Shown: positions 31,557 to 53,875 of the stretch, piece by piece
Numbering within the stretch: the first letter of the stretch is position 1
How the letters are laid out: each line of letters starts with the position of its first letter
Origin: a virus
Taxonomy: Duplodnaviria; Heunggongvirae; Uroviricota; Caudoviricetes
IMG/VR virus record: IMGVR_UViG_3300038451_000684
DNA length: 64,000 nucleotides
Reading direction: 5' to 3' (one strand)
The notes under the pieces: generated by a model
Databases searched by the model: none
What the model saw: the letters and a program-made list of their open reading frames with translations, nothing else
What the model was told of the DNA's origin: nothing
Program-made: the position numbers and the translations under genes

Positions 31557-32420
31557 CTAGTTCACGCCCTTGGTCAATGTCGGACTTCCACCGATGATGA
31601 ACGTGCAGTTTGCGCCCTGATGACCGCATACCCCCTGCTGCATCTTGATGCGTTCAAGCTGGATGTACTGATCTGGTGAAAGGTGCATGTTCTCGCGGTA
31701 GGCATTGTCGGCATCTGCCCGGCTTGTCTCTGCCGCTTTACGTTGATCCTCGGCGAGCTTGCGCTGCTGTTCCGTAATAACTCTCTGTTCCTGCGCCGCC
31801 GTTTCAATGCGCTGGCTCTTGATGGCGTCTGGTGGATTGACGCGACCGACATTGACGGCAGTGAGCGCAATCGGAACTCCGGTTTGCACGACGATGGTTC
31901 GTGAGGCTGTTTCGACCTCCTGGCCAACAACATCCGCCGCCGACTGATCGATGGCCATCTCCTGCATATCGCGCTTCTTCACGGCATCGCGAACGGCGTT
32001 CTGAATGGGCTGGTCGAGATTGCGGTTCCAGAAGCCCCAGGTGCTTGGTTGCCCGGATGCATCTGTGCCGCGGTCGGCGCCGAACTTCGACACCAGTTTC
32101 ACAGAGTCAGTAACCCTGAACGTCAGCACAACATGGAAGCTGACTGGAACTCCGCTCTTCGTCATCATGTCGTCGAATTCCATATCGACGCGCTGTGGCC
32201 GCATATCCAGATCGATGTGATCGCTGGTAAGGGCGCCGAAGGACAAGCCGGAAGAAACGGGCGTGTCATCAACGCCGCCATGACCAAAAATCATTGGATG
32301 CTCAACCCAGACGGCCTCATGCCCGGCATCGGGTGAAGCGATGCTGCATCCAGACAACGGAATTGACGCGAGCAAAACCACGATAAGCGCAAACCTTCTC
32401 ATTGCCTTCCCCCTGTGCAA
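31557..32420 (-). CDS. SPFH/band-7 (stomatin/prohibitin-like) lipoprotein (287 aa)
   Basis: Lipoprotein signal LLASIPLSGCS. Central region fits the SPFH architecture, followed by a coiled-coil Q/E/R-rich segment. Confidence 0.45.
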   Translation of the reverse strand: MHRGKAMRRFALIVVLLASIPLSGCSIASPDAGHEAVWVEHPMIFGHGGVDDTPVSSGLSFGALTSDHIDLDMRPQRVDMEFDDMMTKSGVPVSFHVVLTFRVTDSVKLVSKFGADRGTDASGQPSTWGFWNRNLDQPIQNAVRDAVKKRDMQEMAIDQSAADVVGQEVETASRTIVVQTGVPIALTAVNVGRVNPPDAIKSQRIETAAQEQRVITEQQRKLAEDQRKAAETSRADADNAYRENMHLSPDQYIQLERIKMQQGVCGHQGANCTFIIGGSPTLTKGVN

Positions 32421-32562: not shown

Positions 32563-33021
32563 TTACGCTTTCTCCGCCGGACGCTGCTTCCGGGCATAGC
32601 GCCGCTTCTTCACGACCGCATTTCCGTTCTCGTCTTTGCCCAGCGACGGGATTTCCTGGCCGCTGCGCTCACGAACCAGATTCAATCGTGGCTCCAAAGG
32701 AATGTCCACATGCTCATCGACCTCAGTCTCTTCGATCTCGCCAGATTGCTCTGTTTCCGCCGGCCGCTTCACTTCGATCTTGGTCTTGACTTCGGCCAGA
32801 TCGAATCCGCGAAGCCTCAAATGCACATCAACCGTGCCATCGTAGCCGCCCGTGTAAGCATCCGCTTCGCGCAGATCGCAGTTGTGGCGCAGATTCTCCG
32901 CCACCTGTTCCAGCACATCGTTGATGATTTCTTCGCCCGTCAAACCCTCTACGTAATCGTCTTCCACCCTATGCCGCCTCTCTTGGTTGATGAATTTCGC
33001 GATCCAGTTCAACCGCGTCAA
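32563..33021 (-). CDS. acidic hypothetical protein (152 aa)
   Basis: ORF only. Confidence 0.4.
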   Translation of the reverse strand: MTRLNWIAKFINQERRHRVEDDYVEGLTGEEIINDVLEQVAENLRHNCDLREADAYTGGYDGTVDVHLRLRGFDLAEVKTKIEVKRPAETEQSGEIEETEVDEHVDIPLEPRLNLVRERSGQEIPSLGKDENGNAVVKKRRYARKQRPAEKA

Positions 33022-33244
33022 TCAGCTTGACCATGTCGTCCTCGTTCAAATTTCCACCAGCATCGGACACATCCATGCCCCAGCCGTCATACGTTCCATC
33101 CTCGGTTCTGAAGAAATGCGATGTGCCCGTGGACTCTACCACCAAATGCCCTTGTCCCCCCGGCGCAGCTTCAATCACAGAAACCTTCCCGATCAGATTG
33201 AGCGTTTCTGTCTGCCCATCACAGCGCACTACCTGAATCTTCAT
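32969..33244 (-). CDS. hypothetical protein (91 aa)
   Basis: ORF only. Confidence 0.35.
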   Translation of the reverse strand: MKIQVVRCDGQTETLNLIGKVSVIEAAPGGQGHLVVESTGTSHFFRTEDGTYDGWGMDVSDAGGNLNEDDMVKLIDAVELDREIHQPREAA

Positions 33245-33476
33245 CGTGCCGCTCCTCGTGTTCGTATTTTGTCTTCAGCGCCAGGAACTTTCTCAGGGTG
33301 CCTGGAAATGGACTTACACGACAGGACTCAATCAGTTGCACCGTGCGCCGGCTGATGTCCAAAACTTCCGCCAGCCTGACCTGGGTAAAAAGATTCTTTT
33401 TCCGGAACTGCGACCATTCCTGCTTGCGGCTCTCTCGCTGCTGCAGGTCTTCCTCACTAGGCTTCGGTCTTGGCAT
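33219..33476 (-). CDS. XRE-family helix-turn-helix transcriptional regulator (85 aa)
   Basis: Segment LFTQVRLAEVLDISRRTVQLIES is a classic HTH_XRE. Divergent from the + strand early genes across the control region. Confidence 0.6.
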   Translation of the reverse strand: MPRPKPSEEDLQQRESRKQEWSQFRKKNLFTQVRLAEVLDISRRTVQLIESCRVSPFPGTLRKFLALKTKYEHEERHDEDSGSAL

Positions 33477-33526
33477 ATCTCACCCCTAACTTCATCGAAA
33501 ATCCGTGCCCTGTCAACAATGATTTT

Positions 33527-33832
33527 TTAATCGGCAAACACCCTAGTTTGCGCCTTGCGCAATCTGTCAGCACCAGCAACATAACAGCGGCCAATAATCG
33601 CCGACGCAGGAATTGGCATTGAACTGCAAACTTCCCAATGAGCCCCGCCAGTTACAAAATGCGCCTTTACAAAAAACACATAGGCACCCCCAAAAGTAAC
33701 TGCATCTTCCATGTGCTGCGCAAAATACGTTGTCGCCTGAAATCCTTCCTTCTCGATCTCAGAAACCATTCCCTTGCTGTTCGTGCCATAAAACCAAACC
33801 ATTTGCTCATTCATGCTTCGCACCTGTTTCAC
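33527..33832 (-). CDS. hypothetical protein (101 aa)
   Basis: ORF only. Confidence 0.35.
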   Translation of the reverse strand: MKQVRSMNEQMVWFYGTNSKGMVSEIEKEGFQATTYFAQHMEDAVTFGGAYVFFVKAHFVTGGAHWEVCSSMPIPASAIIGRCYVAGADRLRKAQTRVFAD

Positions 33833-33847
33833 GAGGAACCTTTGCGC

Positions 33848-34081
33848 CTACCACACGTCTTGCCTAAACTCTTGCGGTCTGCGAATCCGCTTTCTTGCCC
33901 GGTACTGTTGCATTCCCTTCCGGCCTCTTCCGCCACGCGTCAGATACCGCTGCAACGGAGTTTCCGCATAAAAATTGTCACAGAGAAGCTTCATCAACTT
34001 GGCCAGTTTTGTCGGATTGATCTTTCGCAAAGCACACATAACTCCACTCATCCACTTTGCGCAGAAGTTACGCTTATCCAA
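33848..34081 (-). CDS. basic hypothetical protein (77 aa)
   Basis: ORF only. Confidence 0.3.
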   Translation of the reverse strand: MDKRNFCAKWMSGVMCALRKINPTKLAKLMKLLCDNFYAETPLQRYLTRGGRGRKGMQQYRARKRIRRPQEFRQDVW

Positions 34082-34685
34082 TTTTTTTGTCTACTGTGAT
34101 TTTCAGGTGCGCTTTCTTTGCGCCCAAGTTGCGCCCCGGTGTTTTCTCTTTCAGAAATTTCTATATTTTCAATTGCGCCAGAATTGCGCTTTAGGGTTTT
34201 CAAGTTATAAGAAAATGGGAGGTTCAAAGGCGTCGACGACGACGAGCGCCCCCCCCCTCCCGGACAACCTGGCGACAACGGACAGGGCCGCGCCCGGTAG
34301 CCTATTGGGGCGCCGACACGATACAAAGCAATAGGTGACGCCAAACCTACAGAATTAGCGGCGGTATGCCCTCTGTACGCGCTGGACAGCCCCTTACAGG
34401 GACTTTGCGGTAGCTCATGGCCTTGACTGCCGGACTTGCTAGCCTGCCATGCCAGAGCGCTCGCGCACCCCCGCAGACGCGGCGGTATTGACGTGACAGC
34501 TTGCGCCTGCTTTTTGATAGGTGGCCATGAATCTGACCTTGGGGCGAAAAGGCTTTACTCTATCCAGCCGTTTTTTCTTGCACTTGGGCGGCACCCCTAG
34601 CACCATGGAAACGCCCCGGCACGACATATCTATATATAGGTGCGCACGGCGCGAATACCGCACGACTGTATAACAGAAAATAAAT

Positions 34686-34737
34686 TGCACTCTGGTGCAA
34701 TTTATGCTTGACACTGTAGAGCGGAAAGGCGCAAAGT
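34686..34737 (+). promoter_or_regulatory. early promoter module 1: palindromic operator TGCACTCTGGTGCA + TTGACA -35 + conserved GAGCGgAAAGGCGCAAAGT
   Basis: One of three near-identical modules, with the others at 36636 and 44080. Confidence 0.5.
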
Positions 34738-34775
34738 TGTATCAGTTCGATGTTACAGGGCGAACGCCCGGAAGG

Positions 34776-34982
34776 ATGACGATTATGTACACACAAGAGA
34801 TTGCAACCGATGAATATCAGTTTGAGCACGCGCCCTCAGCATACGGGTTTGATTACCGGCATCAAGCATGGGTAAAAGATGGGAAGTATATTTCATGCGG
34901 TCACGGAAACAAACCCGCTTGCGGCTGCTATGGCGCAATCCATGCAGGCGAACCCATTGCAGCCGATGCAGAAGTTGAGTAA
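34776..34982 (+). CDS. Cys-rich hypothetical protein (~66-69 aa)
   Basis: ATG at 34776 or 34785 downstream of AAGGA. Contains CGHGNKPACGCYG. Confidence 0.4.
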   Translation: MTIMYTQEIATDEYQFEHAPSAYGFDYRHQAWVKDGKYISCGHGNKPACGCYGAIHAGEPIAADAEVE

Positions 34983-35278
34983 TCGATACAGCGCAATCTT
35001 TCACGCAACACAACAGGGCATTGCCCAAGAGGAGAAAGCATCATGGCTATTACGTTGATTGTTCTTTCAGGCGCGATTATCGGCGGAGTATGGATCATGC
35101 GCGAACACACGGCACACAAGCGGCAAGTGCAAGCGGCGAACGGGCAACGGCTGGCCAATGTGATACGCTCGTGACGGGTTTTTCCCGTCCATCGGGTAAT
35201 CGGTCCCGATGCTGAATGAGCGCGGCCAGTGGTCAAGCGCGAAACGGGAGCATAGCTCCGAATCCCAAGGGGGATAGA

Positions 35279-36229
35279 ATGAGCACAAACTATCACAACT
35301 TTACAATCGGCGCGGCAATCAATCCTAACGTTGCACTCCGCATGCAGACACCGTTAACCATGGAAGCGCTGCAGCACTATGCGCCGTCCGCGTTCGCCAC
35401 GGCCGCGCACGAGTCACGCTCTGACCGATATACATACATTCCTACTTCGGAGATTATCGCCGGTTTGGTCAAAGAGGGGTTCCAGCCTTTCAGCGCGACT
35501 CAGAGCCGTTGCAGGATTGCCGGAAAATCTGATTTTACGAAACACATGATAAAGTTTCGTCACCCCGATTCTTTCAGTGCAATCCAAAAAGTGGGCGATT
35601 CCGTGCCGGAAGTCGTGCTAGTCAACAGCCACGACGGAACCAGTGCGTACAAGTTGAGTGCCGGCTTGTACCGGCTGGTTTGCTCTAATGGGCTCATGGT
35701 TGCCGACTCTACCGTCCAGATGGTCAAGATCATGCACAAGGGCAATATCGTCGACCAAGTCATCGAAGGATCTTTCGAGATTGTCCAACAGTCCGAAAAA
35801 GCGCTCGCACGCGCCGATGATTGGCAACAGTTACAGCTTACGGCAGGCGAACAGGGCGCCTTTGCGGACGCGGCGCGCACATTGCGCTTCGCGGACGCGG
35901 ACGGCGAGATTAAAACGCCTATCACGGCCGAACAGCTTTTACGTCCCCGCCGTGACGAGGATGCACCAGGGCGTACGAATGACTGGCGGCGGCCTGCCAC
36001 TCCGAAACCGGACCTCTGGCACACGTTGAACGTGGTACAGGAAAACGTGGTCCGTGGCGGCCTGCACGCATGGCAACAGGGTATTGACGCGAATACAGGG
36101 CGCAAGACTGCCCGGCGCGTCACAACTCGTGAGGTGCGCGGCATCGATCAAGACGTAAAGCTCAACCGGGCTCTATGGATGCTCGCCGAAAAAATGGCGG
36201 AACTGAAGGGCATGGCTGTAGCGGCCTAG
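35279..36229 (+). CDS. DUF932-like phage/ICE-associated protein (316 aa)
   Basis: Start MSTNYHNFTIG after AAGGGGGATAGA RBS. Core LVNSHDGTSAYKLSAGLYRLVCSNGLMV resembles DUF932 family members. Assigned from memory of the family. Confidence 0.45.
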   Translation: MSTNYHNFTIGAAINPNVALRMQTPLTMEALQHYAPSAFATAAHESRSDRYTYIPTSEIIAGLVKEGFQPFSATQSRCRIAGKSDFTKHMIKFRHPDSFSAIQKVGDSVPEVVLVNSHDGTSAYKLSAGLYRLVCSNGLMVADSTVQMVKIMHKGNIVDQVIEGSFEIVQQSEKALARADDWQQLQLTAGEQGAFADAARTLRFADADGEIKTPITAEQLLRPRRDEDAPGRTNDWRRPATPKPDLWHTLNVVQENVVRGGLHAWQQGIDANTGRKTARRVTTREVRGIDQDVKLNRALWMLAEKMAELKGMAVAA

Positions 36230-36311
36230 ATCCTTCCACCTGGGCGGGCGAGTTCTTCGCCCGCTTCATCCTTCAATCCAATTTAAAACGGGTGCTGCAG
36301 GGGAGGGACCT

Positions 36312-36599
36312 ATGCCGCAAGACACACACACTAGCACAATTAGCGACTTCGGAATTAAGCCACGATTCAAGAGCACATCTGCAAACGAGACGGCAGAAGA
36401 ATTGATTCATATAGCCGTCCAAAAAGTGTTTGACCGTTGTAACGCAGTAGATAACGCGTGCGCGAAAGACTTCGCCGGAGAGATTAGAGACGCGGCGGCA
36501 AGCATAACGCACTATACCGCTTCCAAACGCACAACCGAACGGATACGAAAAGCTGTAGCGGACGCATTTTGGGGAAACAAGCGGGAACCGTGGAATTAA
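36312..36599 (+). CDS. hypothetical protein (95 aa)
   Basis: GGGGAGGG RBS 6 nt before ATG. Confidence 0.45.
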   Translation: MPQDTHTSTISDFGIKPRFKSTSANETAEELIHIAVQKVFDRCNAVDNACAKDFAGEIRDAAASITHYTASKRTTERIRKAVADAFWGNKREPWN

Positions 36600-36611
36600 A
36601 TCGAACGCTCT

Positions 36612-36629
36612 TTTGATAGGCGCCCAAAA
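36612..36629 (+). promoter_or_regulatory. post-stop motif TTTGATAGGCGCCCAAAA (representative of 8 copies)
   Basis: Family yTTTGATAGnnGcCCAAAa sits directly after stop codons of + strand early genes. Copies are at 34513, 36612, 38289, 39728, 40689, 41766, 44058 and 44143. Confidence 0.5.
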
Positions 36630-36635
36630 TAATCT

Positions 36636-36685
36636 CACCATAGTGTATTTTCTGCTTGACACTACGGAGCGCGGAAGCGCAAAGT
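36636..36685 (+). promoter_or_regulatory. early promoter module 2 (CACCATAGTG half-operator, TTGACA, GAGCGCGGAAGCGCAAAGT)
   Basis: Same architecture as module 1. Confidence 0.5.
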
Positions 36686-36721
36686 ATCAACAGAATCAAA
36701 ATTCGAAAGGGGAAAGACGCC

Positions 36722-37318
36722 ATGAAGTCACAGAAACGCATCCAAAAAATCACAGTTCAGCGAATTGACGACAATGAAGGCCCGGACACCAGTTATCCCA
36801 GCTATCTGGGGGAGTATGCCAGCAAGCCTACCAGCGAATTTAGCATCGACCGTGACCACGCTGAAGATTGCCCGCGGTTCTGGGCAAACGATGATATTCC
36901 CGATGACGCCAGAGTGTGTGATTGCACCACTCATGACCAAAACACTTATCGTTATTTCAATCCCGGCTCTGTAGAACCTTTTGACCCGGCTGCAAGCTGG
37001 ATTCCCGCCGATGTGACCGATAAGCACGCCCATTGGTTAGCAGCCATGCGCGAAAATGCCAGCGACGATTATGCACGCATGGAAGCCTACAACCGCGAAG
37101 AGTGGCATTTCATCGGCATTCAGGCGCAGGCGGAGATTGTTCTCGATGGGACTTGTCAGACTATTAAGTCTGGCGGACTATGGGGCATTGAATCGGACTC
37201 TGATGAATCGTATCTTTGCCATGTTGAGCGCGAGGAACTGACCTCCCTACGCGGCATTCTTCACACCATGGGATTTTCGAAACGCGCCATTGCCGCCGCC
37301 TGCAAGGGGACAAAATGA
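36722..37318 (+). CDS. hypothetical protein (198 aa)
   Basis: ATG after GGGGAAAGACGCC. Acidic with several Cys/His. Confidence 0.5.
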   Translation: MKSQKRIQKITVQRIDDNEGPDTSYPSYLGEYASKPTSEFSIDRDHAEDCPRFWANDDIPDDARVCDCTTHDQNTYRYFNPGSVEPFDPAASWIPADVTDKHAHWLAAMRENASDDYARMEAYNREEWHFIGIQAQAEIVLDGTCQTIKSGGLWGIESDSDESYLCHVEREELTSLRGILHTMGFSKRAIAAACKGTK

Positions 37319-37521
37319 ACCGTGAATACGTTCTATGGGGTTTGCCCGCCGGATCCAACGACCCGATAGACGAAAAAGTATTATCGACGCAAGCGAAAAC
37401 GCCTCAACAGATGGATACGGTCAAGCAAGCAGCCTTGCTTGATGGCTGGCATTCGTTCCGCGTCCAGATCCTAGACTTGGATGCAAAGCCGGATTTTGCC
37501 GGAGTAGTCAAGCACAGCTAA
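37315..37521 (+). CDS. hypothetical protein (68 aa)
   Basis: ATGA-coupled to the upstream gene. Confidence 0.4.
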   Translation: MNREYVLWGLPAGSNDPIDEKVLSTQAKTPQQMDTVKQAALLDGWHSFRVQILDLDAKPDFAGVVKHS

Positions 37522-37523
37522 CC

Positions 37524-37556
37524 ACCCGCCCGCCCGTGGGCTGGTACGCGGGCTGA
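37524..37556 (+). repeat. GC hairpin repeat CCGCCCGCCCGTGGGCTGGTACGCGGGC (copy 1 of 2)
   Basis: Inverted repeat GCCCGC...GCGGGC lies immediately after a stop codon. A second copy is at 37872..37906. Confidence 0.45.
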
Positions 37557-37573
37557 AACGGAAAGGGGAACCG

Positions 37574-37870
37574 ATGAACGTAGCAATCAAGGTTACGACC
37601 ACCAGCACCACGCTAGGCAATCCAGCGCTCACCACGTATGAGCAAATTGCGCGGGCGGACAGCCACTCAAACGCCGTACATTTTCTCATTACCGATGCAC
37701 CCGACGATATGCCGCGCAGGGAGGTCTATGCGCAATTTTGCCGCATTGCACCTTGTAAGCAATTTGCCAAGGGACACGGCGAAACAGGCAGCCCGGAGCG
37801 CCAACACTACGGAACAATTTACCCGTGGGCAGAGATTGCCGACAAACCGCAAGGCGCAATGATTTTCTGA
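37574..37870 (+). CDS. hypothetical protein (98 aa)
   Basis: GGGGAACCG ATG start. Confidence 0.4.
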   Translation: MNVAIKVTTTSTTLGNPALTTYEQIARADSHSNAVHFLITDAPDDMPRREVYAQFCRIAPCKQFAKGHGETGSPERQHYGTIYPWAEIADKPQGAMIF

Positions 37871-37871
37871 T

Positions 37872-37906
37872 TCTCGCGCCCGCCCGTGGGCCGATACGCG
37901 GGCAAG
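37872..37906 (+). repeat. GC hairpin repeat CGCGCCCGCCCGTGGGCCGATACGCGGGC (copy 2 of 2)
   Basis: Near-identical to 37524..37556. Sits after a stop codon and before the next RBS. Confidence 0.45.
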
Positions 37907-37917
37907 GAAAATTCACA

Positions 37918-38268
37918 ATGAATGAACGCGATTTTTTTGACAAGCAAGCTGCGGCAGGAACTCTCCAAGGATCTGTAACGGGAAATCCAGCCGCCGCCGT
38001 CCGCGCATTGGGACCGATAAAGACCATTCTCATTGGATGCGGCGCAATGCTGAACACCGAAACCAATACGCCCGCTATGGAAAAGCGCGTCCTGAAAGCA
38101 GCTCACAAGGCCCTCAACCGGCGCAATCTGACAGCCATTTTCGAGCATGGCCAATGGTGGATTGAACACTTGCCAAGCGGCGCACAGTGGGCAGTTAATG
38201 ACGCGAGCGGTCCGAGTTGCCCGGATGGATTCGACTTTGAACAGGTAACGCAAGGCAACGAAGATTAG
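37918..38268 (+). CDS. hypothetical protein (116 aa)
   Basis: ATG after AAGGAAAATTCACA. Confidence 0.45.
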   Translation: MNERDFFDKQAAAGTLQGSVTGNPAAAVRALGPIKTILIGCGAMLNTETNTPAMEKRVLKAAHKALNRRNLTAIFEHGQWWIEHLPSGAQWAVNDASGPSCPDGFDFEQVTQGNED

Positions 38269-38363
38269 GCGCAAAGTCCGTATTCTGGACTTTTGATAGG
38301 TGCCCAAGAATAGCGAACCATTTTGAAAAACCGGCCGCGAATCCGGCCAGAACCGAGGACAGC

Positions 38364-38654
38364 ATGAAATTTCAGCTTGAAATTGAATTGGGCAACGATG
38401 CCATGCAGACGCGCCGTGACATTGAAGAGGTATTACGCAGGACAGGGCAAAATCTTGCTTATATGTGTGACCCGCCCGAAGACGGCGACGAAGGCCCCAT
38501 TTTCGACTTGAACGGCAACAAGGTAGGAACATGGACGGTCACAGGTCAACGGCAAGCGTACGGCCAATGTATCAGCGAAGAAGAATTAGCAAGCGAGCGG
38601 GAACAGTTGAGCACAGAAGATCGTGACAAGCTGGATGCCCTGCCAAATGGCTAG
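38364..38654 (+). CDS. acidic hypothetical protein (96 aa)
   Basis: Preceded by the conserved leader AACCGAGGACAGCATG. Confidence 0.45.
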   Translation: MKFQLEIELGNDAMQTRRDIEEVLRRTGQNLAYMCDPPEDGDEGPIFDLNGNKVGTWTVTGQRQAYGQCISEEELASEREQLSTEDRDKLDALPNG

Positions 38655-38855
38655 TATCACAGCCCCGGCAAAGCCGGATTAGTGAAAGGTTACAGAATGA
38701 GACGAATCAGCAAAAGACGCTTCTACAGCTACGGCGGTTTTTCTAATCCGCATTGCATTCGCGTGACACGCGGCAAAAAATGGGCATACTTCTACGCGTT
38801 ATAGTTCAACCTCAACCCCTAACAGCGGCACAGCCGCAGAATCGAGCATCGATCA

Positions 38856-39181
38856 TGGCACAGGAACCAAAACAGATTATTGACATTCCCGAACTCAACA
38901 ACGAACAGGGCGCGGCAAAATTGGAGCTTAGCACGCGTAAGTATAGCAACGGGCAAATTGTTTCCGCCGCGCACATCCATTATGCAAAAGATGGAATGCT
39001 GACCTTTATGATGTATAGCGACTTCAGTAAGACCATGCTCCGCATCAAAGGCCGCGCCACACAAAAGACGCTGGACGCCCAACACGCGCAGGCATTCACA
39101 CCGGAGAGCATCGAAGCCTTGAAGGTCGAAGCGCTGGCATTCTATGCCAGCAAGCGCAAACGCGAAGCCATAGCAGCCTAA
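38856..39181 (+). CDS. hypothetical protein (~108 aa)
   Basis: Start chosen at MAQEPKQ. Weak RBS. Confidence 0.35.
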
Positions 39182-39270
39182 CAGCTCAAGCCGTGAGCGC
39201 GGTCACCTGGCCGCGCCCTTTCGTCCATCGCATCATAACGGGCGCACAGCCCCAAGAATTGAGGTTCGCA

Positions 39271-39720
39271 ATGCCAGAACAAGACAACATTTCCGGCGAA
39301 GTAATTTATAGCTACACCCGTGCACAAGCAATTGCAGACGGCGTTTTGGTGGATCTTTCGGACCCGTCTTTCACCTTCCGGCCTAGCCTGCCCATTCTGA
39401 AAGAAGCGGGAATCAAGTTTCCCGTTGCCATGACTTCGGCCGCCTTTGCGCGCACTGTGCAAGATCCTGATACCAATGAGCCATTACCGCCCGGCCAAGA
39501 CGTGAGCGGCCGTCTCTGGGACGTGCTGACAGTCTTCAAGCTCTACGCACGACGCGGCGGAAGTACGATGTTCTTTCCGGTTTGCGTCCAGAATTGGGTA
39601 TATGTCGGCGGCAAGCGCACGGCAAATATAAAGCATGAAGACGTGAACCTAAAGGCGGTTTGCGGTCCTGGCGACACGCCCGCGCCCGTCATTACGATCA
39701 TGCTGCCCGATGAAGATTGA
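39271..39720 (+). CDS. hypothetical protein (149 aa)
   Basis: Start MPEQDN after the GGCGC-ACAG-CCCC leader hairpin. Confidence 0.4.
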   Translation: MPEQDNISGEVIYSYTRAQAIADGVLVDLSDPSFTFRPSLPILKEAGIKFPVAMTSAAFARTVQDPDTNEPLPPGQDVSGRLWDVLTVFKLYARRGGSTMFFPVCVQNWVYVGGKRTANIKHEDVNLKAVCGPGDTPAPVITIMLPDED

Positions 39721-39800
39721 AGTCCCATTTGATAGCTGACCAAACTTCTTGACCCATAACGCAACACAACGGGCGCACAGCGCCAAGATTCGAGTTTCCG

Positions 39801-40694
39801 ATGGTTTTCAATCCTGATTATGATCTTGCGCGGCCACTGGCAAGCGCCTTGAAAGCGAAGTCTCCGTATGTCGGCATTCCTATTCCTGGCCATGCGCCTT
39901 TGATCTTCAAACGGTCTAAACTTCAAAACGCCCTGCGCGGCGTCAAGCCGATCTATATTGACGTGGCGATAGATCCCGCAGGCGAGCGCTTTTTGACGGT
40001 TGAGGGCGTGGCCAGTGCGCGCTGCCGCACCTTCATGCGCATGCGCTCTATCCACCGTGAAACCTTCTATAATCCCTTCTCCGAGCCATACAACGAGATG
40101 CAGAAGTGGAACCCCCTGAAAAAGGCCGCCGCGCTGCGCACATCCAAGTATGACAAGGCTCTCGCCAAGCTGGAAAAGCAGCTCGCCAAGCTAGGCGACC
40201 GTCCGCAGATTCAGAACCCGTGCCTTTCGCACAGCACGGTCGACACTTCCAATCATGCGCAGTTTTTCCGCTGGCATGAACAAAAAGACCTGCGCCGCAA
40301 AATCGGCGCGCTGGCATCGCTGGCATACAGCGGCAAGATCACTGCACGCGAGTTTTACAAGGCGCTGGCACCCTTGACCACCGTCAAGCGTTACTCCGAA
40401 TTTACCGAAAAGCAGCGGGAAAATATCATCGGCAAGGTGCCGTTTAGGCATGACGGTTTCATGATCTACGTCCACCCCAAAAACATATGGAAGTTTCTCC
40501 CCGATTTATCACGCTCTTGGATGGGTACGCGCCCAAGGCTCTACTGGGGAAGCTGGCAAGAGTGGCAGGCGGAACAAACGAAGGAATGGGGCGCCGCGCG
40601 GTATGAGGTGGTCTTGGAGTGGTCCCGCGCACGCCGTGAGATCCTGTCACAGATTCAAGGCATCCGCGATATGCAGCCCATCGCCTCTATTTGA
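39801..40694 (+). CDS. hypothetical protein (297 aa)
   Basis: Long ORF. Leader hairpin GGCGCACAGCGCC lies upstream. Confidence 0.5.
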   Translation: MVFNPDYDLARPLASALKAKSPYVGIPIPGHAPLIFKRSKLQNALRGVKPIYIDVAIDPAGERFLTVEGVASARCRTFMRMRSIHRETFYNPFSEPYNEMQKWNPLKKAAALRTSKYDKALAKLEKQLAKLGDRPQIQNPCLSHSTVDTSNHAQFFRWHEQKDLRRKIGALASLAYSGKITAREFYKALAPLTTVKRYSEFTEKQRENIIGKVPFRHDGFMIYVHPKNIWKFLPDLSRSWMGTRPRLYWGSWQEWQAEQTKEWGAARYEVVLEWSRARREILSQIQGIRDMQPIASI

Positions 40695-40767
40695 TAGAGG
40701 CCCCAAAACATCCACACCAGAACGCAGTTTTAACCGGGGCTCAGCCCCAAGAAAGCAGACATTTACC

Positions 40768-41757
40768 ATGGCAACCATGACTATGCCCATCACCAGCGCC
40801 ACCGCCGATAAACTTGTCAGCCGTTTCCGCACTTGGGCCGATGCCCTGCAAAGCAAGATTGACAACGCCTGTCGGCCAATGACAGAGAACCCGACGCCGA
40901 AGCGCAATTGCCAGTACCAGCGCCGTCTGCATGACGGTCGCAACTTGGAGCGTACGCAGAAGGCACTGCGCGCCCTGGCAGACGCACGTGAAAGCGGCAC
41001 GGTTCCGCCCGAGCTGGCAGACCTCAAAACGAAGAACGACATCGCCGAACTGGTGCGCAAGGGCATCGATGGCTCACGAGGCGAATATTACTCCTGCATT
41101 GAAGCGAGCGACTACGCCGAAACCTCCGAGGCCGCCCGGCAACTGCAAGCCATGATTAAGGGCAGTAGCCATGAGCAGGCCGAACGCGAACGCCTGCGCA
41201 GAGTTGACGCTCTCGAAGCCGAAATCAAGCTAACCACGATTCCCGGCTACTTCCCGACGCCCGCGCCCGTGGTCGACCTCATGCTGCAGCGCGCGCGCAT
41301 TTCGGATGACATGAAGGTGCTAGAGCCGTCAGCAGGTAGCGGCCACATTGCCGACGCTATCCGCGCCACTCACCCTGGCGCATGGATCGACACCATCGAA
41401 ATCGCCTCGCGTCTGCGCGATATTTTGGTACTCAAGAATTACCGCGTAATGGCTTTTGACTTTCTCGACTTCGAAAACGATCAAGAGCGCCCGTATGATC
41501 GCATCGTCATGAATCCGCCCTTTGAGCGGCAACAGGACATTGCCCACGTGCGCATGGCATATTCCTTGCTTGCACCTGGCGGCATCCTTGTCACCATCAT
41601 GTCACCCAGCTTTGAATTCCGCAGCGACCGCAAGAGCACAGAATTCCGCGCATGGCTGGAAGAAGTTGGCGCAACTTGGGAGAACCTGCCAGAAGGATCT
41701 TTCAAGGCCAGTGGCACCGGCGTATCCACCCGCCTTTTGACGATTGAACGCAACTAA
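40768..41757 (+). CDS. orphan N6-adenine (amino) DNA methyltransferase (329 aa)
   Basis: Motif I is VLEPSAGSGHI and motif IV is RIVMNPPF (NPPF). It carries a ~200-aa N-terminal extension. The start is at the internal ATG, since track ORF 40603 overlaps the upstream gene. Confidence 0.7.
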   Translation: MATMTMPITSATADKLVSRFRTWADALQSKIDNACRPMTENPTPKRNCQYQRRLHDGRNLERTQKALRALADARESGTVPPELADLKTKNDIAELVRKGIDGSRGEYYSCIEASDYAETSEAARQLQAMIKGSSHEQAERERLRRVDALEAEIKLTTIPGYFPTPAPVVDLMLQRARISDDMKVLEPSAGSGHIADAIRATHPGAWIDTIEIASRLRDILVLKNYRVMAFDFLDFENDQERPYDRIVMNPPFERQQDIAHVRMAYSLLAPGGILVTIMSPSFEFRSDRKSTEFRAWLEEVGATWENLPEGSFKASGTGVSTRLLTIERN

Positions 41758-41808
41758 ACAGCCCTTTTGATAGATGCCCAAACTTCAGAACCAGAAACCG
41801 AGGACAGC

Positions 41809-42078
41809 ATGGAAGAACAGACGAACACAAAAGCAGCGGTCAAAGAGCTGCTAGACGATTACCGGCAAGAAGCGCAAGGCGGTGGCCCGTTGTGGGTCGC
41901 CGCGGCAAAGGACATTGTCCGGGCATTGGAGCAGAAAACGCCAGAAGAGGCACTGGTCTTTTTCAAGCAGATGATCCGAAATTGCGGAAAGATGACCGTT
42001 GGCAGTTCCTATGAAGGCGCGGCCGCAACGCTGAAAAAAGCCATTCAGGCAGACAAACGCGCAGCAAAGAAGGGATAA
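41809..42078 (+). CDS. hypothetical protein (89 aa)
   Basis: Leader AACCGAGGACAGCATG. Confidence 0.4.
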   Translation: MEEQTNTKAAVKELLDDYRQEAQGGGPLWVAAAKDIVRALEQKTPEEALVFFKQMIRNCGKMTVGSSYEGAAATLKKAIQADKRAAKKG

Positions 42079-42082
42079 GCCA

Positions 42083-42319
42083 ATGAGCTACGCACAAGCA
42101 ATGAAATGGGGGCGCATACACCGCAAAGGCACACGCCAGCCGATCATCATGTCGACCGGCTCCGGGTTCTGGCCTGCCCATGCATGGCTGGTAGGAAATT
42201 TTTGGCCTTATGTGGAGCAATGCAAAGCGACTGGCATTGAACCGATGAAGTGCGAAGCCTACTACAACGCCACAGTAAGCGGAGGCGCGGGAGATCCGCG
42301 TCTTCCCAGACAGGAATAA
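42083..42319 (+). CDS. hypothetical protein (78 aa)
   Basis: ORF only. Confidence 0.4.
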   Translation: MSYAQAMKWGRIHRKGTRQPIIMSTGSGFWPAHAWLVGNFWPYVEQCKATGIEPMKCEAYYNATVSGGAGDPRLPRQE

Positions 42320-42362
42320 CGCAGGATCAACCGGAGCACAGCTCCAAAATCGGGGGAAGGGT

Positions 42363-43028
42363 ATGAAACTAACAGATCGTTTTCGCCCAAAGAAAGATGC
42401 CAGATCTCTGCAAGAGTGGAATCAAGCGGCTTGGCAAACACGTTCAGATGCGCTTTCCGAACGAATCAAGGCCGAAGCAGGGGAAGCGCTCGCCGCGCAC
42501 ATTGAAACCTTGTATCCGGCTCAAGACATGGCCGTTCTCGCAAAGTACAACAGCGCCATCACGCTTACCGATGTGTCTTTGATGGTGCGTGTGCCTGACT
42601 CCGATTCCTGGTCCGAACACTTTTGCATTGCATTGCCGCGCGCCGTGGTGGTAGCTGCTTCTTACATCGGTTTGTATTGCGGCGGCCCGCGTTTTTCGCA
42701 GATGCCCGGCTATGGACTCCACGCAAAATCGCTTGAGGAGATCAAAGCCGGAAAAAACGACACATTCAAGTCTTTGGAGTCCTATCTTGAATCGCATCGA
42801 GAAACCGAGCGGAAAAGGCTTCCTGAAGCATTGGAACCTTTGATCTTCGCTTTGGCCTATGCTCGCCAGCAATACAAAGCGGAATACAAGCAAATCGCAA
42901 GTTGGCCAAAGGAATACAACGCGGCGCATGGCGTTTACCCAACCTGGGGCGAAATTGCCGCAGAGTTCCCCATGGCTGGTGCATTGATCCAGCAAGCCGC
43001 ACAGGACAAGCCCAAAGACGCAGCGTAA
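42363..43028 (+). CDS. hypothetical protein (221 aa)
   Basis: GGGGGAAGGGT ATG start. Leader hairpin GGAGCACAGCTCC lies upstream. Confidence 0.5.
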   Translation: MKLTDRFRPKKDARSLQEWNQAAWQTRSDALSERIKAEAGEALAAHIETLYPAQDMAVLAKYNSAITLTDVSLMVRVPDSDSWSEHFCIALPRAVVVAASYIGLYCGGPRFSQMPGYGLHAKSLEEIKAGKNDTFKSLESYLESHRETERKRLPEALEPLIFALAYARQQYKAEYKQIASWPKEYNAAHGVYPTWGEIAAEFPMAGALIQQAAQDKPKDAA

Positions 43029-43105
43029 GGCATCGGTGTGATAGCTAAACGCAACACGACCGCAATCTCTAACCGGCACACAACGCCAGAAACCGAGGGA
43101 GCACG

Positions 43106-43381
43106 ATGAGAACTACAACCACATCCAGAGCCAAAATTGCCTTTGTACTTACCATCTTGACCGCAGCGGCGGCTTTGGTTGCTGCTTTCCCAATAATTCG
43201 CAATTTCCTTTATGGCAATCGCTCTACGCATACAGATCCGCGCATTGCTTCGGGGGAATGGAAGATCGAAGTCCAGACGCCCCCCTGTGAGAGCGCCAAG
43301 AATCTGCAAGTCATCTGGCCTAAAGAGTCCGGCGCGCCCGTCACCATCGAATGCAATGCCCTGCCGGTCCCCGTCAAGTAA
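43106..43381 (+). CDS. small secreted protein (91 aa)
   Basis: N-terminal hydrophobic signal/anchor AKIAFVLTILTAAAALVAAFPII. Confidence 0.45.
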   Translation: MRTTTTSRAKIAFVLTILTAAAALVAAFPIIRNFLYGNRSTHTDPRIASGEWKIEVQTPPCESAKNLQVIWPKESGAPVTIECNALPVPVK

Positions 43382-43422
43382 CCGCAACACAACCGGAGCA
43401 CAGCTCCAGAAAGGTTTTCAGC

Positions 43423-44049
43423 ATGGCGCCCTTAACCGCTGTTCCCGATCCGCCGGAGTCCACCCGCCACCGCGGCCGCCCGGCACTGACTCCAGCCGAG
43501 CGCACGGCACGCATTGAAGCACGGAAAGAGAAGCGCCGCGCCGACCGGCGTCAAGCTCGGCGCGCTCTTGAGGTTGTGACTGCGCAAGAAAGCGCGCCGG
43601 CACCTGCACCACCCGCACCAGCCGCGCCGCATGTGTACTTTGCGCTAGGCCAGCGCGCTCGCGCCCTGCTGGGCTTCGCCGTGGGCGCATTCGTTCCCCT
43701 GGCCAGCTATACCGTGGTGCATACGGAAGTCAGCACGCGCCCGCTTATGTGGTTTCTGGTTGCCGGTGGCCTGCTGTACTCATCGATCAGCGTCTACACC
43801 TGGGCCGTCCAGATGTTTCATTGGCGGCTCAGGGCCCTGGGCTTTGTCGTCCTGCTGGAAAGCACCTTGACCTTTTGCGGCATCCGTTGGCTGGGCCTGG
43901 CAGGACTGGCAATCCTCATGTTGCTCAACGCGCTCAACGCGGCCGTGTCCTTGCAGCAAGCCGGAGCTTCCGAGGCGCCGGCCACCGAGGCCGAACCCTG
44001 CTACAGTCCAGAATCTGGACTGTGCCTGACCAGCGCCAAGCAGCGGTAA
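43423..44049 (+). CDS. multi-pass membrane protein with basic N-terminus (208 aa)
   Basis: Start MAPLTAV after the leader hairpin. Four predicted TM helices. Confidence 0.45.
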   Translation: MAPLTAVPDPPESTRHRGRPALTPAERTARIEARKEKRRADRRQARRALEVVTAQESAPAPAPPAPAAPHVYFALGQRARALLGFAVGAFVPLASYTVVHTEVSTRPLMWFLVAGGLLYSSISVYTWAVQMFHWRLRALGFVVLLESTLTFCGIRWLGLAGLAILMLLNALNAAVSLQQAGASEAPATEAEPCYSPESGLCLTSAKQR

Positions 44050-44079
44050 CTCCTATTTGATAGGGGACCAAAAAATTAC

Positions 44080-44128
44080 ACCAGAGTGCGCTAATCTCTT
44101 GACACTACAGAGCGACTAGCGCAAAGTG
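44080..44128 (+). promoter_or_regulatory. early promoter module 3 (CACCAGAGTGC, TTGACA, GAGCGACTAGCGCAAAGT)
   Basis: Third copy of the module. Confidence 0.5.
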
Positions 44129-44258
44129 CAAATAGGCCCTATTTGATAGGTGCCCAAACTTTTGGTTCTGTAACGCATTTTTAGCCGGAGCACAGCTCCA
44201 GATACCAGCGTTTCCGCAACAGGTTTGGATCGCTGACAAGGGAAGGGAAGTAAGCATT

Positions 44259-44549
44259 ATGAATTTCACAGGACATCAGGCACGCGTTTTGGCTGGCATT
44301 CCGCCGCTGGTAGAAGATGCGACATGGAAGGCCATCGCTCCGCAAGATCAGCACCGCATCGAGTGTGAGCATTTCCATGCGTGCGGAGAAGATGCGACGT
44401 GGACCACGCGGCAAGGCACTCTTTGCGTCTGCGATTATCATCGCTTCACTGCGGACATTCAGCGCATCATCAAAGCCCTGACGATCCAGAACCAGAACTT
44501 TTTGATTCCTGCTGTTGAGAGGCCGTCGCATGAACGAATCAGCGCATGA
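44259..44549 (+). CDS. Cys/His-rich hypothetical protein (96 aa)
   Basis: Residues CEHFHACGED...CVCDYH. GGGAAGGGAAG RBS. Confidence 0.4.
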   Translation: MNFTGHQARVLAGIPPLVEDATWKAIAPQDQHRIECEHFHACGEDATWTTRQGTLCVCDYHRFTADIQRIIKALTIQNQNFLIPAVERPSHERISA

Positions 44550-45207
44550 CCAAAAGCGGATGGCGGCGGGGTTCGTTGTCATGGCCTGCATGATGGTTCT
44601 CGTTCTTTGGCGCTGGCACCAGCGGCAATTGGACTTGGGAATTCGACATCGCACGGCGCATTTGGAGCGCGAAAATGAACAAATGCGCTACTACGCCGAA
44701 CACGATGATCTGACCGGCTTATGGAATCGCCGCATGATTCTCCAGCGGTTGCATCAAGAAGTGAACCGCGCACAACGCGACCACACCCCCTTGAGCGTTG
44801 TTTTGCTTGATCTGGACCATTTCAAGCGGGTCAACGACACATTCGGCCATCCGGGCGGGGATCTGGTTCTCGAAAAGGTTAGCGCCATCTTGCAGAATTT
44901 TGTGCGTTCTTATGATTGGGTCGGCCGTTGCGGAGGCGAAGAGTTTTTGTTGATTCTCCCAGGAGCCAATTTGCTCAATGCGCAAACGCGCGCCGAACAA
45001 TTACGGCAAACCATCGCTTTGTCAGAGTTTTTGCACGACGGCGCACTGATCCAGATCACGACTAGCTTAGGGGTTGTTTGCAGCTTCCCGGCTATGTGTG
45101 ACGGTCTGATCCGCACCGTCGACTCCGCGCTCTACGAAGCCAAAAAGAAGGGAAGGAACTGCGTCGTGGCGATTGAGATGAAACCTTGCGAAAGGGAAAA
45201 TCGATGA
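44515..45207 (+). CDS. membrane-anchored GGDEF-domain diguanylate cyclase (start 44515 or 44530)
   Basis: One N-terminal TM helix. The canonical LLDLDHFKRVNDTFGHPGGDLVL and RCGGEEF active-site motifs are both present. Confidence 0.8.
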   Translation: MRGRRMNESAHDQKRMAAGFVVMACMMVLVLWRWHQRQLDLGIRHRTAHLERENEQMRYYAEHDDLTGLWNRRMILQRLHQEVNRAQRDHTPLSVVLLDLDHFKRVNDTFGHPGGDLVLEKVSAILQNFVRSYDWVGRCGGEEFLLILPGANLLNAQTRAEQLRQTIALSEFLHDGALIQITTSLGVVCSFPAMCDGLIRTVDSALYEAKKKGRNCVVAIEMKPCERENR

Positions 45208-45500
45208 ATATTTATCCCATCCAACCACCGGCGGACGTGCCGGAATATGCTTGGCCCGCGTGGTTCGATTGCCTTCTGTGGGCCCTTTATGAACCGGAGA
45301 TTCGCGATAGGTTCACAGCGGACTCCGGTATGAGTTACAGCCCGCCGAAAAGCAAACTGGAAGCCATGATCGATGAAGCAAGCGGCTTTGATCCCGCTGA
45401 GAAATTTGTCATGGCGTTTGTTCCATGGTTCAACGCCAACATCTGGGGGTCGTGGAACGAAGAAAAAGCTGTCCAACAAAAACAGAATAACCAGAACTAG
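45204..45500 (+). CDS. hypothetical protein (98 aa)
   Basis: ATGA/ATG coupling with the GGDEF gene. Confidence 0.4.
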   Translation: MNIYPIQPPADVPEYAWPAWFDCLLWALYEPEIRDRFTADSGMSYSPPKSKLEAMIDEASGFDPAEKFVMAFVPWFNANIWGSWNEEKAVQQKQNNQN

Positions 45501-45509
45501 GAGATTCAA

Positions 45510-46046
45510 TTGCCTGCTGAAGAAATCACGGTTAAGCGTTATCGCTGCGTTTGCAAACGGCCAAACTGCCCCGGCAAACGCCGGCCCTGGCTGTCCAAGG
45601 AAGACAAGATCCCGGAGCAGTGCAGCTGGTGCAAAAGACCTACGTGGGGGAAAAGAGAACTGCAGTTTCACTTGGACTATGAGCAAGTAACCATCAAACG
45701 CTATCGCTGCATCTGCGAACAACCCAGATGTATTGCGAAGATCGGCAAAGGCCGCTCTTGGATATCCAAAACGCATGAGCTGCCAGCGCGCTGCAACTGG
45801 TGCAAGAGCCCCAACTGGAATGGCCACAAGAAGAAACAAAAATCCGTGGTGAGCAAGCAGGTGATTGAAGCCGCTCTCGCCCGCGGCGCTACGTCGATTA
45901 CCATCACCAACACGGATGCCAGCGGCAACGCGATCGGTACGCCTTTGACCATCGCTTTGCCTGTGAAGAAAGCCCAACCAGCCAAAGGGAAAAAACCAGC
46001 GATTATTACACTGCCCAAACCGCGAAAAGTGAGGAACAATGACTGA
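45510..46046 (+). CDS. protein with internally duplicated Cys-rich (zinc-ribbon-like) module (178 aa)
   Basis: Two tandem repeats of KRYRC[VI]C...P.C.......W[LI]SK......C.WCK.P.W. Lys-rich C-terminal tail. Confidence 0.5.
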   Translation: MPAEEITVKRYRCVCKRPNCPGKRRPWLSKEDKIPEQCSWCKRPTWGKRELQFHLDYEQVTIKRYRCICEQPRCIAKIGKGRSWISKTHELPARCNWCKSPNWNGHKKKQKSVVSKQVIEAALARGATSITITNTDASGNAIGTPLTIALPVKKAQPAKGKKPAIITLPKPRKVRNND

Positions 46047-46326
46047 ACATTACATACGGGTTCGGGCTTCGAAGTACAAGAATCTTGCTGGTGATCTAGT
46101 CGACAATCTCTCCGGCTTGAACCCCGTTTTTTATGGGCTCGGCCCCGGCGGCGAACGCCGCTGTTTGGAAGAGGAAACGCTGTACAGCTACGAACCCGGC
46201 CACGATTATCGTTCCGGCCGCATTGTCACCAAGGATGGAACGCGCATGGCGACCACCCAGGCCAATGCACTGGAAGCAGGCTGGGCAGACGTGGCCAACA
46301 TGATGGCAGAACGGAGCATCAAATGA
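46039..46326 (+). CDS. hypothetical protein (95 aa)
   Basis: ORF only. Confidence 0.4.
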   Translation: MTEHYIRVRASKYKNLAGDLVDNLSGLNPVFYGLGPGGERRCLEEETLYSYEPGHDYRSGRIVTKDGTRMATTQANALEAGWADVANMMAERSIK

Positions 46327-46595
46327 CAACTTCTTACATACGCTTTCGTATTCTCAGTGCATGGGGCCCAAAGGATGTATTCCGCTTTTCACAAGAGGGT
46401 GTGGTCCAAGTCGAAAGTTTGCTGGATGTAAAACAGGCCATTCAAAAGATTTCTGTCGTTTATCCGTTGACCTCTTTCGATGTGCTGGAACTGGAATTCA
46501 GCGCGTCCTATGCCTACTTCACATTTGCGGCAGATCCGCATGATCCCGACCAGGAATTGAACCCCAGTAAACCAATCTATGTACCAAAAGGGTGA
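46323..46595 (+). CDS. hypothetical protein (90 aa)
   Basis: ORF only. Confidence 0.4.
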   Translation: MTTSYIRFRILSAWGPKDVFRFSQEGVVQVESLLDVKQAIQKISVVYPLTSFDVLELEFSASYAYFTFAADPHDPDQELNPSKPIYVPKG

Positions 46596-46602
46596 ATCAG
46601 TA

Positions 46603-47286: not shown

Positions 47287-47345
47287 ATTGCGCATTTTGA
47301 CGATTGGTTCGCGGCCGGCAATTGGCAAACGAGAGGCTGCCACGG

Positions 47346-53866: not shown

Positions 53867-53875
53867 AAGCAGGAA

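Follow-up and report, generated by a model that had tools for sequence, protein, structure and literature searches.

What does a cassette of ~65 bp do when it is repeated three times in a phage genome, each copy heading one gene group in a variable early-gene island? We asked this of IMG/VR record IMGVR_UViG_3300038451_000684, a 64,000-nucleotide stretch of DNA (here, the window) from an uncultured, divergent tailed phage of soil or peat. An earlier note, made from the letters of the window, had described the three copies (modules M1, M2, and M3) as early promoters with a palindromic operator. The sites lie where it had placed them, as we confirmed by reading the sequence, and each contains all four parts that it had named (dyad, TTGACA, spacer box, and tail). 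The three-copy observation is real and beyond chance: the core CTTGACACTNNRGAGCG matches three times in the 64-kb window (34707, 36655, and 44098, all on the + strand), against 0.21 matches expected from shuffles, and no further match was found in the window at up to 2 mismatches. A tail, GCGCAAAGT, follows 4 to 5 nucleotides (nt) 3' of CTTGACACTNNRGAGCG in all three modules, ending at 34737, 36685, and 44127, and the center of a CAC-N4-GTG dyad lies 15.5 bp 5' of TTGACA in all three. From their sequence, the modules are probably promoters, and we think it likely, with less assurance, that they are host sigma-70-type promoters carrying operator sites for a phage DNA-binding protein.

The overall layout given in the earlier note held, with some of its strings corrected. 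The spacer box is CT-N3-GAGCG, and M1 reads CTGTAGAGCG rather than CTAC(A/G)GAGCG. The tail of M3 is TAGCGCAAAGT rather than A(A/G)GCGCAAAGT, and the M3 spacer is 1 base shorter. The supposed half-sites of M2 and M3 each make up a full short dyad, CAC-N4-GTG. The modules are composed as follows.

34680 to 34705, + strand: M1 upstream dyad (proposed operator O1), a perfect 26-bp palindrome, ATAAATTGCAC-tctg-GTGCAATTTAT, with the core TGCACtctgGTGCA at 34686 to 34699; center at about -51.5
34708 to 34713, + strand: M1 -35 hexamer TTGACA, with an invariant C just 5'
34712 to 34722, + strand: M1 second, imperfect dyad CACTgtAGAGC (proposed operator O2), overlapping the -35 and the spacer, 24 bp from O1
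34732 to 34737, + strand: M1 -10 hexamer CAAAGT, behind an 18-bp spacer and within the invariant GCGCAA..T; predicted start at A34744 in CAG
36636 to 36645, + strand: M2 upstream dyad CACcataGTG (O1)
36656 to 36685, + strand: M2 core promoter, with TTGACA at 36656 to 36661, CACTacGGAGC at 36660 to 36670, an 18-bp spacer, and CAAAGT at 36680 to 36685; predicted start at A36692
44079 to 44088, + strand: M3 upstream dyad CACcagaGTG (O1); the relative L001 has GCACcagaGTGC
44099 to 44127, + strand: M3 core promoter, with TTGACA at 44099 to 44104, CACTacAGAGC at 44103 to 44113, a 17-bp spacer, and CAAAGT at 44122 to 44127; predicted start at A44134

All three modules are intergenic and co-oriented and lie 30 to 125 nt 5' of start codons with purine-rich ribosome sites. 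The -35 is perfect (six of six positions) in the window modules and in all nine copies that we aligned (see below). The spacer to the -10 hexamer is 18 bp in M1 and M2 and 17 bp in M3, and it is also 17 bp in the homologous module of a distant relative, L027. A pyrimidine-purine step falls 7 nt after the -10 hexamer; it is CA, but TA in M3. In the mechanism that we propose, host housekeeping RNA polymerase would start at each module at the A of the conserved CAG, 7 nt past the -10. From 5' to 3', a module would consist of an A-rich tract, O1, cTTGACA, O2 across the end of the -35 and the spacer, a spacer of 17 to 18 bp in total, a non-consensus -10, and the start. The three copies would head three transcription units of a 12.6-kb rightward early accessory island.

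Relatives of the window phage were gathered via homologues of the gene after M2, exact-protein look-ups, and DNA pattern scans. They comprised close relatives with 76 to 94% nucleotide identity (L001, L018, L020 to L024, and L029) and the distant L025 and L027/L028 (the latter 133 kb, with ~55% amino acid [aa] identity). We aligned nine distinct module copies, orthologous and paralogous (alignment A2), and built a sequence profile (R1) from them. The profile matched exactly three times in the window, three times in L020, twice in L029, and once in L023, at syntenic positions; it had no match in ~20 kb of flanking phage DNA or in unrelated phages carrying DUF932. Invariant columns comprised the CAC and GTG dyad arms, CTTGACACT, GAGC, GCGCAA..T, and A..AG around the predicted start, and the variable columns were the four central dyad bases (TCTG, CATA, CAGA, CTTA, or TACA) and the mid-spacer. 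There were no indels between the dyad and the -35, the dyad center lying 15.5 bp before TTGACA in nine of nine copies. In eight viral DUF932 loci (L010 to L017, 38 to 51% identity), neither the module nor a 17-mer repeat described below was present, so both motifs appear to be clade specific. Megablast of positions 33000 to 45000 and blastn of M2 against 50,697 phage records returned no match, nor did the module pattern against 185,579 genomes.

The -10 hexamer had been called weak in the earlier note, which concluded that transcription probably needs an activator or an alternative sigma factor. The homologous module of L027, TACTATAGTG-N9-TTGACACTATGG...-N17-TAAAAT (E value with R1 of 0.004), has TAAAAT at the position equivalent to CAAAGT in the window. 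Because of this distant homologue, we read CAAAGT as a degenerate -10 that keeps A-11 and T-7. In the M1 copies of L020 and L029 the hexamer is CAATCT, in which only noncritical positions have changed and the A at hexamer position 2 and the T at position 6 are retained. With a perfect -35 in front of them, an A-11 and a T-7 can be enough for basal activity. The first rightward promoter of L027 is TTGACA-N17-CATACT, and the rightward block of L025 has six intergenic cTTGACA promoters, with -10s that include TAGATT, TATTAA, and TACAAA. Since the promoters of L027 and L025 are canonical-like, this phage group appears to drive its island from several ordinary host-type promoters, with the window lineage keeping what we read as a degenerate -10. 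The promoter claim of the earlier note is therefore upheld by intergenic, co-oriented placement, by promoter-type invariant columns in nine copies, and by the canonical TTGACA-N17-TAAAAT of L027.

The note's own version, a promoter that is silent alone and needs an activator at the dyad or an alternative sigma factor reading cTTGACA and GCGCAAAGT, is unlikely. The canonical-type -10s in L027 (TAAAAT and CATACT) and L025 (TAGATT and TATTAA) indicate that the lineage uses ordinary sigma-70 promoters, although a dyad center at about -51.5 is at a position that activators use. Invariance of GCGCAA..T well beyond what a sigma-70 -10 needs, and its presence elsewhere without a -35, also speak for an additional factor, against which stands the retention of A-11 and T-7 behind a perfect -35. 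In favor of a different sigma factor we counted the loose likeness of cTTGAnA plus a C/G-rich -10 ending in ..A...T to sigma-32 promoters. The open reading frames (ORFs) tested and the flanks (~85 kb of phage) yielded no sigma factor, RNA polymerase, or MotA-like gene and, beyond the XRE candidate treated below, no other regulator. PHROGs and Pfam searches of the rightward block returned nearly all ORFans and no regulator. A need for an activator or an alternative sigma factor is thus unsupported. We also rejected a sigma-54 promoter (GG-N10-GC; TGGCAC-N5-TTGC), as it fits only the M1 copies of the window and L020 (TGGTGC..TGCT), two of nine, the other seven having AG in place of GG.

Are the dyads operators? 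Going by their sequence and position, we regard this as finely balanced. O1 has the form gCACY-NN-RGTGc and spans about -57 to -46, that is, upstream; O2, aCACT-NN-RGAGC, is a near copy 24 bp away. CAC-N4-GTG alone is not enriched (8 in the window versus 16.4 expected), so what makes the dyad significant is that it keeps one place in all three modules and is invariant among relatives. The combined pattern CACYNNRGWGC has 9 window matches versus 4.2 expected, a count reached in 3 of 100 shuffles, and six of the nine fall at two fixed positions within the three modules. The first promoter of L027 carries a better copy of the dyad, CACCATAGTA, and this is the one over its -35. A two-operator arrangement would account for the conserved GAGC and favor repression; given the shuffles that reach the same count, it is suggestive only. 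With O2 lying across the polymerase site, activation seems the less likely mode of control. All three units would be switched together by one dimeric regulator that binds both O1 and O2.

A dyad could also act as RNA. Short composite cassettes in T4-type phages, the promoter-early stem-loops (PeSLs) of Arbiol, Comeau, and Krisch, combine an early promoter with a terminator stem-loop upstream (PMC2839356 and PMC4122927). We folded the 43 nt upstream of each -35 and compared them with shuffles. M1 forms a stable hairpin (-12.3 kcal/mol; z = -4.0), whereas M2 (-5.2 kcal/mol; z = -0.3) and M3 (-3.6 kcal/mol; z = +0.8) fold like shuffles, with their dyads outside the minimum-energy structure. As M2 and M3 fold like shuffles and the arms are invariant without covariation, a protein-binding dyad fits better than a general terminator stem-loop. 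The protein-binding dyad of the earlier note thus agrees with arms that stay invariant while the center varies and with a stable hairpin in M1 only. That the cassettes are PeSL-type composites, in which the palindrome is an RNA terminator and no operator protein is involved, we consider very unlikely. The stability of the M1 palindrome, which a scan flags as terminator-like on the minus strand, would suit such an element, as would the position of the cassettes between small ORFs of a hypervariable block and at mosaic breakpoints. M2, M3, and most orthologues have arms of only 3 to 5 bp, however, and fold no better than shuffles, and the + strand has no T-run after the dyad. The M1 minus-strand reading was the only one flagged in the test for an intrinsic terminator at the palindrome, and no minus-strand gene to the right of M1 is read toward it.

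The likeness to PeSLs nevertheless goes beyond the stem-loop. In both cases, short conserved early sigma-70-type cassettes lie between small, mostly ORFan genes in a hyperplastic region, and mosaic breakpoints between relatives fall at the cassettes. They differ in that one of three copies folds stably here, with invariant rather than covarying arms, whereas the PeSL element is a real terminator; the window phage is also unrelated to T4. In function, the closest analogue would therefore be a mobile regulatory cassette of the PeSL type, with an operator-like dyad in place of the terminator.

Several observations weigh against sigma-70-type promoters with operators. The -10 matches TATAAT at three of six positions (CAAAGT or CAATCT), against a host consensus that is inferred only from the promoters of relatives, and a generic promoter scan does not call M1 to M3, as their -10 is below its threshold. 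A plain sigma-70 promoter needs neither the invariant GCG ahead of the -10 nor the invariant GAGC of the spacer, and O2 accounts only for the latter. The string GCGCAA(AG/TC)T is found, too, in independent contexts that lack a -35 (38268 in the window and 1826 in L023), 14 nt 5' of the 17-mer, and for this reason may be a separate element. As to the operators, O1 at about -51.5 lies upstream of the core of the polymerase footprint, a position that fits an activator as well as a repressor, and arms of 4 + 4 bp around a 4-bp center are short for a typical helix-turn-helix (HTH) dimer. No extra dyad copies were found near the gene of the XRE protein, the binder suggested in the earlier note, or in its promoter region.

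The XRE gene, which the earlier note had called adjacent, lies 1.2 kb away inside a leftward operon, which also encodes conserved small proteins at 33527 to 33832 and 33848 to 34081.

33219 to 33476, - strand: XRE/HTH_3-like protein, 85 aa, third gene of the leftward operon

The protein has a weak HTH_3 match (E = 4.6e-4, below the Pfam cutoff) and matches PHROG 8, "transcriptional regulator," at an E value of 3.8e-4. Its orthologue in L027 is 61% identical, with an identical recognition helix (ISRRTVQ), and L027 retains the dyad core AC(Y)ATAGT. The conserved helix and the persisting dyad core are compatible with binding, as far as sequence can tell, and we still find it doubtful that this protein is the dyad binder. 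A PDB sequence search with the XRE protein gave weak matches of the PbsX/CylR2 type only and was uninformative on the operator. The XRE gene may have a promoter of its own, with a very short leader: a perfect TTGACA (33511 to 33516, - strand), preceded by an A-tract, lies 17 bp before GAAGTT, immediately 5' of the start codon.

Comparison with L020 and L023 placed breaks in homology at the 3' end of M1 (34734), at the 5' boundary of the unit that carries M2 (36611/36612), and at a start codon following a 17-mer (38368). The interval between DUF932 and M2 is ~0.3 kb in the window, against 1.3 kb in L020 and 2 kb in L023, made up of different small genes. The content of the island ranges from 6 to 12.6 kb among relatives, and a recombinase gene closes the block in all of them. 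In L020, M1 is kept (with CAATCT as its -10) ahead of a different gene, so the cassette appears to be conserved independently of its cargo. Being repeated and conserved, the cassettes could act as cargo-exchange junctions, and in our proposal they would double in this way between related phages.

It is a different matter whether recombination is their primary role, the modules being crossover sites (e.g., for the serine recombinase at 46579 to 47286) or homology patches that resemble promoters only secondarily. This, too, we hold to be quite improbable. The breakpoints at the cassette edges and the variation in island size, with a recombinase gene at the end of every block, would agree with it, but homologous recombination at any conserved repeat accounts for the breakpoints without a dedicated site. 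The M1 palindrome has the 26-bp length of a hix-type site, which we counted for this explanation; the outer dyad arms of M2 and M3 are not symmetric, however (5 to 6 of 11). The freely differing central bases would block conservative site-specific exchange, and the best-kept columns are those of the -35 and -10 rather than of a crossover core. Recent duplication without any function of its own is barely credible, since the paralogues, for all that their spacer is partly conserved as expected soon after duplicating, differ at about one-quarter of positions while their invariant columns cluster in blocks, and these columns remain unchanged in orthologues of as little as 76% identity and, in part, in the relative with 55% identity.

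If the modules are indeed host-type promoters with operators, their logic is familiar. The lambda OR and OL regions are tandem operators, with a spacing of 24 bp between OR1 and OR2; operators of the C repressor of Rhizobium phage 16-3 have 4- or 6-bp centers; and P1 C1 operators are dispersed at many promoters. The modules resemble such multi-operator control in temperate phages in that the dyads occupy fixed promoter positions, O1 and O2 are 24 bp apart as in lambda OR1-OR2, one of the two proposed sites overlaps the -35, and one regulator could control several operons. They differ in that the strongest site in the window is upstream of the -35 (about -51.5) and not over the core promoter. 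Clustered early promoters for host RNA polymerase drive small host-takeover or anti-defense genes in large virulent phages such as T5, SPO1, and T4. The window likewise has several predicted promoters with strong-looking consensus -35s in a small-gene block; unlike in those phages, its -10 is conserved in non-consensus form and its spacer carries conserved sequence. A repeated early promoter with an operator is thus ordinary phage control, and novelty, if any, could come from the conserved non-consensus -10, the conserved spacer, and the neighboring 17-mer. The modules supply three predicted transcription starts and a candidate operator for an island of ORFan, anti-defense-like genes, and they suggest that, like T4-type phages, a lineage of 131- to 133-kb peat phages uses conserved regulatory cassettes as places to swap gene cargo.

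The earlier note had overlooked the 17-mer, TTTGATAGGNGCCCAAA, which directly precedes M2 and M3, with one more copy following M3.

36612 to 36628, + strand: 17-mer copy just upstream of M2; the others are at 34513, 38292, 39728, 40690, 41766, 44056, and 44142

All eight window copies are on the + strand between 34513 and 44158, versus 0.55 expected from shuffles. Across seven loci, 34 of 34 copies are co-oriented with genes, and the motif is perfect even in L027. It either follows the upstream stop codon directly or covers it (TGA and TAG are both contained in the motif), 0 to 110 nt before the next start, and some copies are tandem half-repeats, with TTGATAG spaced 14 or 21 nt apart. The 17-mer seems to be independent of the promoter module because it is ~65 nt further from the promoter in L027. 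It may act on DNA or as a promoter, rather than on RNA, given that the copy at 34513 is upstream of the first promoter. Its TTGATA was rejected as a -35, as no -10 recurs at a set spacing from it and in L023 (3011) and L020 (2904) the start codon comes immediately next to the motif. A promoter for a single-subunit polymerase was likewise rejected: the reverse complement matches the Syn5 promoter, ATTGGGCACCCGTAA, at 11 of 15 positions, but transcription from it would run antisense to all genes, and no polymerase of this kind was seen.

Two kinds of hairpin recur in the window. G+C-rich hairpins with a 5-bp stem and 3-nt loop (GGNGC-aca-GCNCC, then A(A/G)A) lie 15 to 70 nt before start codons of the rightward block, at 35247, 38665, 38825, 39772, 40736, 42333, 43395, and 44187 (each ~13 nt, + strand). 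Their stems vary with pairing kept (GGAGCacaGCTCC in the window versus GGGGCttaGCCCC in L001), often with an AACGCA box 5' of them. Another recurring hairpin, AGTCCAGA..TCTGGACT, with a stem of 5 to 8 bp, occurs shortly before several 17-mers (38277 to 38291 and 44005 to 44023, with equivalents in L006 and L027).

In Cluster K mycobacteriophages, the start-associated sequence (SAS), GGGATAGGAGCCC, lies 3 to 7 nt before the start codon (PMC3203893). The SAS has the string GATAGGnGCCC in common with the 17-mer. Like the 17-mer, the SAS and the stoperators of Cluster A (L5) are asymmetric repeats of 13 to 17 nt in one orientation, placed in short intergenic gaps among nonstructural genes, often with the upstream stop codon inside. 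The 17-mer differs from the SAS in its distance from the start codon (0 to 110 nt rather than 3 to 7) and in belonging to an unrelated phage and host lineage. One could imagine a single system for both control and shuffling of an anti-defense cassette island, built from the promoters, the 17-mer, and the GC hairpins near starts, with one regulator silencing the three promoters and blocking read-through at at least eight stoperator/SAS-like sites and with the repeats serving as swap junctions. We judge this combination improbable. If true, it would extend the stoperator/SAS phenomenon, so far known only from actinobacteriophages, together with the common GATAGGnGCCC core, to an unrelated lineage that possibly infects Acidobacteriota.

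The window phage is also represented by a 131.5-kb Joint Genome Institute (JGI) contig that encodes an identical protein P0001 and by near-identical fragments from JGI contigs Ga0187858. By terminase, phages of Tunturiibacter (Acidobacteriota) are its closest and only cultured relatives; their large terminase is 28.7% identical. The phage carries an XRE gene, Rha/ANT genes, and small serine recombinases; no large integrase was seen. Genes run leftward to ~34081, rightward from 34785 to 47286, and leftward again after that. M1 closes a divergent noncoding region of 680 bp at the head of the rightward block, and M2 and M3 lie 2 kb and 9.4 kb into the block.

18716 to 19948, - strand: major head protein
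25633 to 27792, - strand: large terminase
34785 to 36599, + strand: predicted transcription unit 1 (after M1), small ORFs and a DUF932 protein (35216 to 36229)
36722 to 44049, + strand: predicted transcription unit 2 (after M2), ~14 genes, mostly ORFans, with DUF6573 (39193 to 39720) and a methyltransferase (40603 to 41757)
44259 to 47286, + strand: predicted transcription unit 3 (after M3), a GGDEF protein (44515 to 45207) and a small serine recombinase (46579 to 47286)

Almost all genes of the 12.6-kb block are ORFans, the exceptions being the DUF932, DUF6573, methyltransferase, GGDEF, and small serine recombinase genes. By its sequence, the block has the profile of an early host-takeover or anti-defense island. 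The note's description of the modules as early is in keeping with such an ORFan-rich accessory island, given its DUF932, DUF6573, methyltransferase, and GGDEF proteins.

The 600-nt noncoding stretch before M1 (34100 to 34680) is partly conserved even in L027, with CAAAGGCGTCGACGACGnCGnGCnCCCCCCCCTCCCGGACAA as its best-kept part. We rejected a structured RNA here, as the consensus fold is weak, at -24 kcal/mol over 539 columns with a covariation term of -0.38. Rfam gave nothing across the window at gathering thresholds and nothing over 33900 to 34900 at an E value of ≤1, and the window has no tRNA or tmRNA. At the left end of the divergent region, 34107 to 34190, there are five direct (A)TTGCGC repeats at intervals of 11 to 12 bp, and L027 has six at 8730 to 8850. 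Their reverse complement, GCGCAA(T), is the string found at the -10 of the modules. Iterons, or operators of the leftward operon, are possible roles for this cluster. We rejected the idea that GCGCAA marks a site of its own: with 122 occurrences in 64 kb, it is so common genome-wide that single matches carry little weight, and only the TTGCGC cluster is notable.

The diguanylate cyclase domain of the GGDEF protein just past M3 was found with an E value of 7.8e-45. Further unusual cargo on the - strand consists of a peptide deformylase, a HAD_SAK_2 "RNA repair" domain protein, and an SPFH/Band 7 protein (48982 to 49542, 28115 to 28588, and 31557 to 32420). An insertion at 50884 to 52526, absent from L001, carries an IS1595-family transposase (51559 to 52476, - strand; Pfam E value of 1.8e-44) and a neighboring 213-aa ORF; a 641-aa ORF across this region on the + strand is spurious.

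The window also contains two clustered regularly interspaced short palindromic repeat (CRISPR) arrays that share one 37-nt repeat, GTTGCATCAAACAGATGCACTGAAAGTTCCTTGCTAC, with spacers of 32 to 36 nt: 47346 to 48382 (15 repeats) and 53266 to 53877 (9 degenerate repeats). A 334-aa ORF at 47251 to 48255 (- strand) is an artifact of the first array, nearly all of which is missing from L001. No cas gene was seen in the window, and the array spacers had no match in the DNA compared here. A search for the host via the repeat was uninformative, as it gave a single hairpin match in an Obscuribacteraceae metagenome-assembled genome and not an array. In reverse complement, the sequence just after the M1 -10, TGTATCAGTTCGATGTTAC (34738 to 34756), agrees with a CRISPR repeat variant at 16 of 19 positions; 47 kb contained two such matches in all, and this one is partly conserved in L029. 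It was rejected as an anti-repeat or repeat mimic, being absent from M1 of L020 and cut by the predicted start at 34744; the match is probably due to chance. The same repeat occurs in another viral contig, L034 (IMGVR 3300044799_000509), in arrays at 8232 to 9998 and 12427 to 12816 (25 and 6 repeats). This contig also encodes an integrase and RecT and, between its arrays, a 754-aa protein (10120 to 12384, - strand) whose C terminus matches Cas12m (PDB; E = 4.6e-6) and a Cas12f1-like TNB domain (Pfam; E = 2.2e-4). Because the same-repeat arrays of L034 flank a Cas12m-like protein, the window arrays look like orphan type V arrays.

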